Of a DNA stretch of 64,000 bases, positions 48,669-49,400 are shown one piece after another. Source of the DNA: Eledone cirrhosa (Eukaryota); assembly GCA_964016885.1 (NCBI GenBank), contig OZ024746.1, positions 99,014,001 through 99,078,000 of the forward strand, in the 5' to 3' direction. Both the position numbers and the translations under genes were made by a program. The number at the start of each line of letters is the position of its first letter. Positions within the stretch are counted from its first letter, which is position 1. Under the pieces are notes generated by a model that worked only from the letters and a program-made list of their open reading frames with translations, had not been told where the DNA came from and made no database searches.

Positions 48669-49309
48669 TGTTTCAAAGATCTGAAAAGTTATTTAGCTCT
48701 GAAAAAGGTGTTGGTACGGATTCCTGCATTAACCATTACACTGATTTATCTTCAACAGCCAGCAGTTTCTATAACACAACTAATAATGTTTTGAATGATG
48801 TAGATAGCAAAGATAGCTCAACATCTATGAACGATGTGATAGAAGGTGCTAGAAATAGAATTTCTATGAATTCTCGTTCAAATGCAGAATGTAATCCATT
48901 GATTTCTAGAGATTTCCCACCATTGGTTGCAAACAGTGAAGTGCAGACTCTTGCTTTAGACAACAACTTTGAAGCTCTTTTGAATAATTCTGAACATTCT
49001 CCATCTTCCTCTGTGATTGACATGCACACACTAACTGTTGAAGACATATTGGGCTTATTTGGAAACAACATGGAAACCCAAACGGCTGTTGATGATACAT
49101 TCTTACTTGGTCTTGAATTCTCTGACATCGAGACTCAAACAACAACAACTGGGGATCTTGATTCAGTAGAAAATCGTTGTCTGATTACTGCAGGAACCCG
49201 AACAACATTCTCAAATCTCAATCTCAGTCAAGATGTTGAGTTCTCTGATATGGAAAACCAGACTGGCTTTACCATGAAGGAACCCCGTGAGGTGGGATGG
49301 CTGTTGTAG
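48669..49309 (+). CDS. ATMIN: Probable terminal coding exon of ATM interactor (ATMIN/ASCIZ), LC8-binding TQT region
   Basis: Non-repetitive, acidic, S/T-rich frame containing LGLFGNNMETQTAVDDTFLLGLEFSDIETQT, which resembles the vertebrate ATMIN C-terminus (..LFFTSNETQTAMDDFLL..FSSVETQT, recalled from memory). Acceptor at 48668. Upstream zinc-finger exons were not seen. Confidence 0.75.
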
Positions 49310-49400
49310 CGTGTGTCACTGGCCATTATCAGCGGAGCAAGGCCCTATTATCGCAGCGCCCTAGGCCCAGAGCCCAATCACCCTGCCCATTTTTCTGTGA
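49277..49400 (+). mobile_element. CRE-clade 3' fragment fused in frame to the ATMIN-like exon
   Basis: KEPREVGWLL*RVSLAIISG aligns with CEPREMEWLFQRISLTILRG of the 42930 copy. Confidence 0.75.

Follow-up and report, generated by a model that had tools for sequence, protein, structure and literature searches.

A fragment of an ATMIN/ASCIZ gene lies joined, on the same strand and in the same reading frame, to the 3′ end of a non-LTR retrotransposon that we assign to the CRE clade, within a 64-kb window, by which we mean the whole stretch of DNA (64,000 nucleotides) analysed here. The two homologies meet at a sharp junction, no other ATMIN sequence is present in the window, and LC8-binding anchors of the ATMIN half have been lost. 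The locus is most likely an orphan, decaying ATMIN fragment that makes no ATMIN protein, and the fragment is presumably not transcribed. As to its origin, we favour, with a probability of about 0.5, a single event in which CRE reverse transcription switched onto an ATMIN mRNA, producing an mRNA/LINE chimera; the standing given below to this and to the other readings of its origin is a matter of judgement.

An ATMIN fragment from the LC8-binding region

The ATMIN half occupies positions 48680..49276 of the plus strand, as determined from tblastn, alignment and base composition, and its frame is open. It corresponds to residues 851-1048 of a 1076-aa ATMIN-like protein of O. vulgaris (tblastn, 89-90% identity over 199 aa, E 1e-102), a region that is the disordered LC8-binding region of ATMIN; disorder of this region has been reported for ASCIZ (PMC5963919). 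The best named matches are ‘ATM interactor-like’ proteins of Octopus vulgaris (P0002, 89%) and Argonauta hians (76%). Full-length homologues of this name carry the ASCIZ zinc-finger Pfam family; neither the ATMIN fragment nor the CRE tail is matched by a Pfam model. The sole indel in the alignment of the fragment is an in-frame insertion of 3 nt. An open frame of 214 codons (48665-49309, plus strand) contains the fragment and ends in ...SDMENQTGFTM-KEPREVGWLL-TAG, after which the reading continues as RVSLAIISG. An earlier, sequence-only reading of this DNA had spoken of an ‘ATMIN-like exon’. The ATMIN identity stands, given the 89% match to O. vulgaris and the ASCIZ family of the homologues, whereas the status of an exon is not established.

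A tblastn search of the 64-kb window with six homologues recovered neither residues 1-850, nor the zinc fingers, nor the last 28 residues, any ATMIN exons before base 1 lying outside the scope of this search. Thus, the copy resembles cephalopod ATMIN/ASCIZ (ZNF822) across the LC8-binding region, where it retains three intact anchors, but it differs from the full O. vulgaris protein, which has 12 [TV]QT motifs, in lacking everything on either side.

Comparison of ATMIN C-termini, which the sequence-only reading had proposed, gives a clear answer. All ten homologues found end in another, conserved tail of 28-30 aa, which contains a seventh LC8-type motif (TQT), and the KEPREVGWLL end is therefore foreign to ATMIN. 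A frameshift-tolerant search of the whole window for the native 28-aa tail reached a best score of 35, against a self-score of 152; between 49277 and 51500 the score was 26, and 17 of 30 shuffles did as well. The displaced native end that might have been expected downstream was thus found neither in that interval nor in the rest of the window. On the other side of the fragment, the upstream 60 aa lack homology to ATMIN at the protein level (37 of 100 shuffles were as good). A single exon of 601 codons encodes the entire C-terminal region of ATMIN in human and mouse (PMC2958817). If the cephalopod gene is organized in the same way, both ends of the fragment would be cuts inside an exon.

A retrotransposon tail in the ATMIN frame

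The sequence from 49277 to 49364 (plus strand) is the 3′ end of a CRE-type ORF, identified by a profile match and by column counts, and it shares both strand and frame with the ATMIN fragment. GC content changes at the junction from 0.37 on the ATMIN side to 0.58 on the CRE side. The window holds a longer CRE-type tail for comparison (42924..43133, plus strand; profile score 102 bits), which has 250 database homologues at E≤0.001. The CRE piece matches the part of this tail at 43065-43121 with 58% identity over 19 aa (tblastx E 0.001), and shows no match to it at the DNA level (blastn, word size 7). The two tails therefore look like different subfamilies, the DNA of the CRE piece being unlike the commoner CRE subfamily of the window.

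Of the 150 homologues listed for the 43-kb tail, we dropped 4 as repeat-like or multi-stretch and built a profile from the other 146. This profile matches 49274-49354 in the ATMIN frame (domain score 15.8 bits, iE 2e-4). When the piece is presented as a 120-nt stretch the score rises to 20.9 bits, which none of 2000 shuffles equals (best 4.6). The proposal that KEPREVGWLL*RVSLAIISG is a CRE tail read in the ATMIN frame is therefore borne out. The peptide with which it had been compared begins at 43062, one base from the 43063 originally given.

The TAG at 49307-49309 had been placed at a Gln codon of the element, and so it proves: among the 71 homologues matching the motif pattern, this column is Gln in 68 and the column of the S that follows is Arg in 70 (the other 75 of the 146 did not fit the pattern and do not enter these counts). 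Both are thus simple decay changes, and the TAG most plausibly arose by mutation as the CRE piece decayed. Were it absent, the frame would still close, 43 codons further on. The register of the element is lost after ...IISG, and its original stop may be the codon at 49362-49364, picked out by eye. In all, 14 of 19 residues are identical to the best CRE homologue. The stretch 49365..49478 (plus strand) is probably the 3′ UTR of the element with a slipped tail, as its repeats suggest: an 11-nt unit occurs twice at 49408-49429, and a T-rich 10-nt unit three times at 49444-49478.

The assignment to the CRE clade depends upon the homologues. Profile matches at iE<0.03 occur at eight loci of the window, seven of which contain the tail motif. 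Among 20 long tail homologues scanned, 10 carry RVT_1, and in all seven RT-bearing homologues examined a Cys/His knuckle and an RPDG..WD motif precede the tail. The nearest PDB structures are those of R2 proteins, and an Atlas search with the nuclease region of CRE returned eukaryotic clusters only. Elements of the R2 group are described as encoding a single ORF in which the RT is followed by a CCHC-type knuckle and a PD-(D/E)xK nuclease (PMC3636483), a layout seen here in the homologues, the piece in the window being tail only. Furthermore, the RT motifs of the full-length homologue P0028 match, by eye, those of O.sinensis_126_LINE, which is labelled R2/CRE in the supplement to PMC10294476; an assignment made by eye through these motifs is indirect but consistent. 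Among molluscs, CRE is reported almost only from cephalopods (PMC10294476). The piece thus shares its tail motif with proteins of this group, and differs from an intact element in that only about 29 codons and the UTR are left, the coding part being interrupted by a nonsense codon and running out of register.

A ubiquitin C-terminal hydrolase (UCH) domain follows the nuclease tail in 7 of the 20 long homologues (P0041, P0042, P0049, P0050, P0056, P0068, P0072), 5 of which also have an RT. Some CRE-type elements may therefore encode a deubiquitinase.

The junctions and the target site

The junction between ATMIN and CRE is confirmed as real. Given that the two pieces have the same orientation, their common frame is a one-in-three event. 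The chance that a CRE tail starts within 10 nt of a given point is about 0.0005; this figure links the junction to the truncation but leaves template switch and insertion unseparated. At the 3′ junction (49277..49281, plus strand), the first 5 nt of the CRE piece agree, at all but one base, with the native ATMIN codons that would follow (4.3 bits). Since 7-11 of 150 random flanks fit as well, this is a possible but weak microhomology.

The 5′ junction zone (48640..48679, plus strand) consists of a T-rich flank with an acceptor-like AG at 48667-48668. The ATMIN codon profile can be extended upstream to about 48662, across a 5-nt insertion, with a gain of 8.0 bits. Compared with this extension, 1-2 of 150 random flanks are as good when the two closest homologues (P0001/P0002) are used, and 52 when Argonauta is used. 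If the extension is real, then the CAG of this zone is a native Gln codon of ATMIN, with a break in the native frame immediately upstream of it.

Duplications of the target site have been reported for CRE elements (PMC3636483). Around the chimera, we found no duplication of at least 12 nt at 85% identity or more, and exact matches reach only 8 nt. Nor does any duplication stand out from chance: 54 of 200 random stretches did as well, and none stood out at any of the eight boundaries tested. The only candidate, an 18-nt pair at 48621/49392 with 78% identity, is too diverged and probably due to chance. The six other CRE copies of the window, whose ends are approximate, show no duplication either, so that this test has little power.

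Decay of the LC8 anchors

LC8 binds motifs anchored on TQT (PMC6607443), and the activity of ASCIZ is reported to be tuned by the number of its LC8 motifs (PMC5963919). A motif scan and the alignment identify three intact LC8-type anchors in the plus-strand interval 48941..49141 of the fragment: VQT at 48941-48949, TQT at 49076-49084 and TQT at 49133-49141. Three others, within 49031..49258 of the same strand, are broken, by Q>L at 49031, Q>R at 49199 and T>N at 49256; in each case a single base separates the codon from one that would specify the conserved residue. The seventh anchor is gone through truncation.

These positions are otherwise strongly conserved. Among eight other aligned sequences, all 18 anchor columns are invariant, whereas 107 of the 180 other columns vary. 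Likewise, anchors account for 3 of the 21 differences between the copy and O. vulgaris, but for 0 of the 81 that separate an independent pair (p=0.008, for a test chosen post hoc). The changes specific to the window are distributed without regard to conservation, affecting 6 of the 91 columns that are invariant and 8 of the 107 that are variable (Fisher p=1.0). When sites are classed in another way, however, the copy has changes at 9 of 99 conserved sites where intact homologues have 5 and 7, a result that counts against decay. The open frame does not conflict with neutrality, under which it would be expected to survive 14 replacements with a probability of 0.11-0.58. In relative-rate tests, the excess of changes in the copy was not significant (11 vs 5, p=0.21; 11 vs 7, p=0.48), which also counts against decay. 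All of these tests compare extant sequences, supplemented by a plain tree, in which the ATMIN piece has an end branch of 0.068 and the copy is not separated from an orthologue of another octopod.

We consider it highly probable that the ATMIN copy is non-functional. The sequence-only reading had left open whether the transposon supplied a new C-terminus to a live gene or truncated a duplicate. A live gene is disfavoured by the different tail of all ten homologues, by the absence of the rest of ATMIN from the 64 kb, by the breakage of three of six LC8 anchors with the seventh cut off, and by the database, in which we found no protein with the chimeric end among proteins of 374-2000, 117-373 and 52-167 aa (an insensitive search, in which 90% clusters could hide one). 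A search for a host gene, covering 300 of the 321 unmasked ORFs of at least 48 aa (the 21 shortest were left out), likewise gave only transposon-type domains and sub-threshold Pfam matches. The other half of the earlier alternative fares better, insofar as the copy is indeed non-functional, but the displaced end that it implied is not there.

Origin of the chimera

From its 5′ to its 3′ end, and in one orientation, the chimera consists of a host coding fragment cut at both ends, the 5′-truncated 3′ end of a LINE, and a slipped repeat tail. Chimeras with the same order and orientation have been described, which form when a template switch or an RNA ligation accompanies target-primed reverse transcription (PMC13174262, PMC2104539). 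In the reading that we favour, the CRE protein would have nicked the target, and reverse transcription would have started at the 3′ end of the CRE RNA. About 200 nt of CRE would have been copied, comprising the tail, the UTR and the last ~29 codons, before a switch (or ligation) onto an ATMIN mRNA at a point 28 codons ahead of its stop; about 600 nt of that mRNA would have been copied in turn, at which point integration ended. Both halves would have drifted afterwards, a single C>T turning the CRE Gln codon into TAG.

We infer a single-event origin because it accounts at once for the absence of residues 1-850 and for that of the native tail. Two of the six other tail-bearing copies in the window start within 10 profile positions of the chimera's CRE piece. 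The two halves look similarly young, judging by the end branch on the ATMIN side and by the identity to the best homologue on the CRE side. The RNA intermediate is likewise suggested by the arrangement of the pieces; since the fragment spans no intron junction, it is not thereby proven.

It is important to weigh co-integration against readings in which the two pieces arrived separately. An ATMIN duplicate, either a 5′-truncated retrocopy or a copy made at the DNA level, may have come first, and a CRE element may then have inserted 28 codons before its stop, or have been joined to it by a deletion, with loss of the native end and of function. This sequence of events is possible, if doubtful: CRE-type tails are dense here, with their eight profile matches in 64 kb, and the unit as a whole has no target-site duplication. 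Moreover, the neighbouring elements (a helicase piece and, by eye, an RT-like piece) are internal fragments, which indicates that deletions are common at this location and keeps the sequential model alive. However, the model requires two or three events, among them a deletion that removes the entire native end yet leaves about 200 nt of CRE, and no trace of that end survives in 49277-51500 or in the remaining window. The CRE element would also have to postdate an ATMIN copy that itself looks young. Because the native end is not downstream, and because the copy is also cut on its 5′ side in mid-coding sequence, co-integration fits the observations at least as well as a later insertion does. The lack of a target-site duplication, together with the ragged 5′ junction (a possible 5-nt insertion) and the weak 3′ microhomology, would also suit the filling of a double-strand break with pieces captured from two RNAs or DNAs, without normal target priming by CRE. 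We regard such capture as improbable, since the 3′ end of the LINE piece is genuine and carries a slipped repeat tail, as expected of target-primed reverse transcription, and since the orientations of the two pieces agree.

Two further readings would give the locus a coding role. The AG at 48667-48668 is preceded by 17 pyrimidines in 22 positions, a quality of site met once per 2694 nt, and an acceptor would lie within 12 nt of the start of homology with a probability of 0.006-0.011 (the threshold was set post hoc). The CRE piece contains candidate splice donors at 49287..49297 (plus strand), namely GTGAGG at 49287 and GTGGGA at 49292, and the 618 nt from 48669 to the donor at 49287 are a multiple of three; GTGAG occurs once per 542 nt of the window, and hence is unremarkable alone. 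There is also an AATAAA at 49753. The fragment might thus be exonised, either as a cassette between this acceptor and the donor at 49287 or as a terminal exon running to the TAG, and so add three LC8-binding motifs to another protein. The frame is preserved and 214 codons are open, and according to PMC5963919 fewer LC8 motifs need not end function. In its fullest form, this reading holds that the CRE RT captured an LC8-binding module from ATMIN mRNA and supplied a donor or stop, creating a live exon of 206 codons with three docking sites; if so, a LINE clade of ancient origin shuffles short linear motifs as exons. Both forms strike us as quite improbable. The ORFs searched include no host exon, the database contains no protein with the chimeric end in any of the three length ranges, the changes are spread regardless of conservation, and the open frame is to be expected anyway. 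The CAG may, in addition, be a native ATMIN codon that adjoins a T-rich target; the upstream extension that would make it so lowers the odds of exonisation without removing them. A last reading holds that this is the species' real ATMIN, its last exon ending in CRE sequence and its remaining exons more than 48 kb upstream. Such exons could precede base 1 of the window, an acceptor stands ahead of the fragment, and the tree leaves the copy unseparated from another octopod's orthologue. Nonetheless, we judge this reading very unlikely: it needs a new intron of more than 48 kb where all ten homologous proteins are continuous, the first codons of the supposed exon contain a mismatch, and four of the last seven LC8 anchors, invariant elsewhere, are lost.

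Relation to known systems

Decayed gene fragments fused to LINE tails are already known as a class. Like the mRNA/LINE and U6/L1 chimeras described in PMC13174262 and PMC2104539, the chimera has a cellular piece at its 5′ side and a truncated LINE 3′ end in the same orientation, away from the parent gene. It differs from them in the partner, which derives from the interior of a coding sequence near the 3′ end of an mRNA and not from a small RNA or first exons, and in having no demonstrable target-site duplication. For example, the human sense-strand mRNA/L1 chimeras of PMC13174262 mostly join first exons to near-full-length L1, unlike the arrangement found here. Unlike L1/MGL chimeras, moreover, the LINE in question appears to be a CRE-clade element with a restriction-like endonuclease.

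Transposon-derived coding ends and the exonisation of transposons in live genes form a general class. The locus resembles this class in its in-frame join, and in having a stop and a candidate donor inside transposon sequence; it departs from it in that no other exons were found in the window, the anchors are unconstrained, and no protein matches.

In the open-licence literature we found no report of such a chimera for ATMIN or for CRE in cephalopods, and the main text of PMC13282606 mentions neither CRE nor chimeras. In the likeliest case, the locus is a pseudogene fragment that matters little biologically but is liable to mislead gene annotation, with its open frame, good acceptor and stop. 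If co-integration is true, then CRE-clade elements can copy pieces of host mRNA.

Surrounding repeats

The window is animal DNA, AT-rich and repeat-rich, whose nearest named protein matches are in octopods; tandem repeats make up 18496 of 64000 bases. Very long micro- and minisatellite arrays occur at 9280-14450, 45996-48540 and 57100-59600, and the ATMIN fragment starts 140 nt past one of these arrays. A SINE-like family, which we take to be tRNA-derived from its appearance, is abundant at 77-94% identity (50220-50400, 42130-42300, 41385-41560, 4494, 19248, 56251, 26191 and others). An Rfam search matched nothing, this family included.

On the 3′ side, the chimera is adjoined by a decayed reverse-transcriptase-like piece (about 49550-49918, minus strand), which resembles O.sinensis_20_LINE by eye and is presumably of the R4/Dong type; Pfam and PDB searches gave no match for it. 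Directly after the 43-kb CRE tail comes a Pif1-type helicase fragment (43428-43715, minus strand; Pfam Pif1_2B_dom, E 1e-16), which has frame breaks, reaches by eye from about 43300 to 43900, and is probably the relic of a Helitron. An ORF at 50580-50843 (minus strand) matched VWA_N2 below the cut-off (Pfam E 5.5e-5), and its PDB matches are weak and Cys-driven (best E 0.084); we do not credit this domain, which is probably a chance match.

At 14473-14643 (minus strand), a single C2H2 finger (Pfam E 7e-6) ends a short ORF and is followed by a stop and a microsatellite. It was considered as an ATMIN finger and rejected, there being no tblastn match of note; we assume that it is the tail of an RTE-type LINE. 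An AP-endonuclease-like LINE piece lies at 34287-34637 (minus strand, Pfam E 1e-5), adjoined by two overlapping ORFs at 34911-35673 (plus strand) that look Penelope-type by eye and lack Pfam support. Further CRE-type fragments, all on the minus strand, are located at 22655-22973, 29717-29863, 30376-30450, 39058-39150, 62007-62251 and 63588-63650. The CRE-type fragments belong to several subfamilies and amount to about one per 8 kb, and the copy at 22.7 kb contains an internal duplication.
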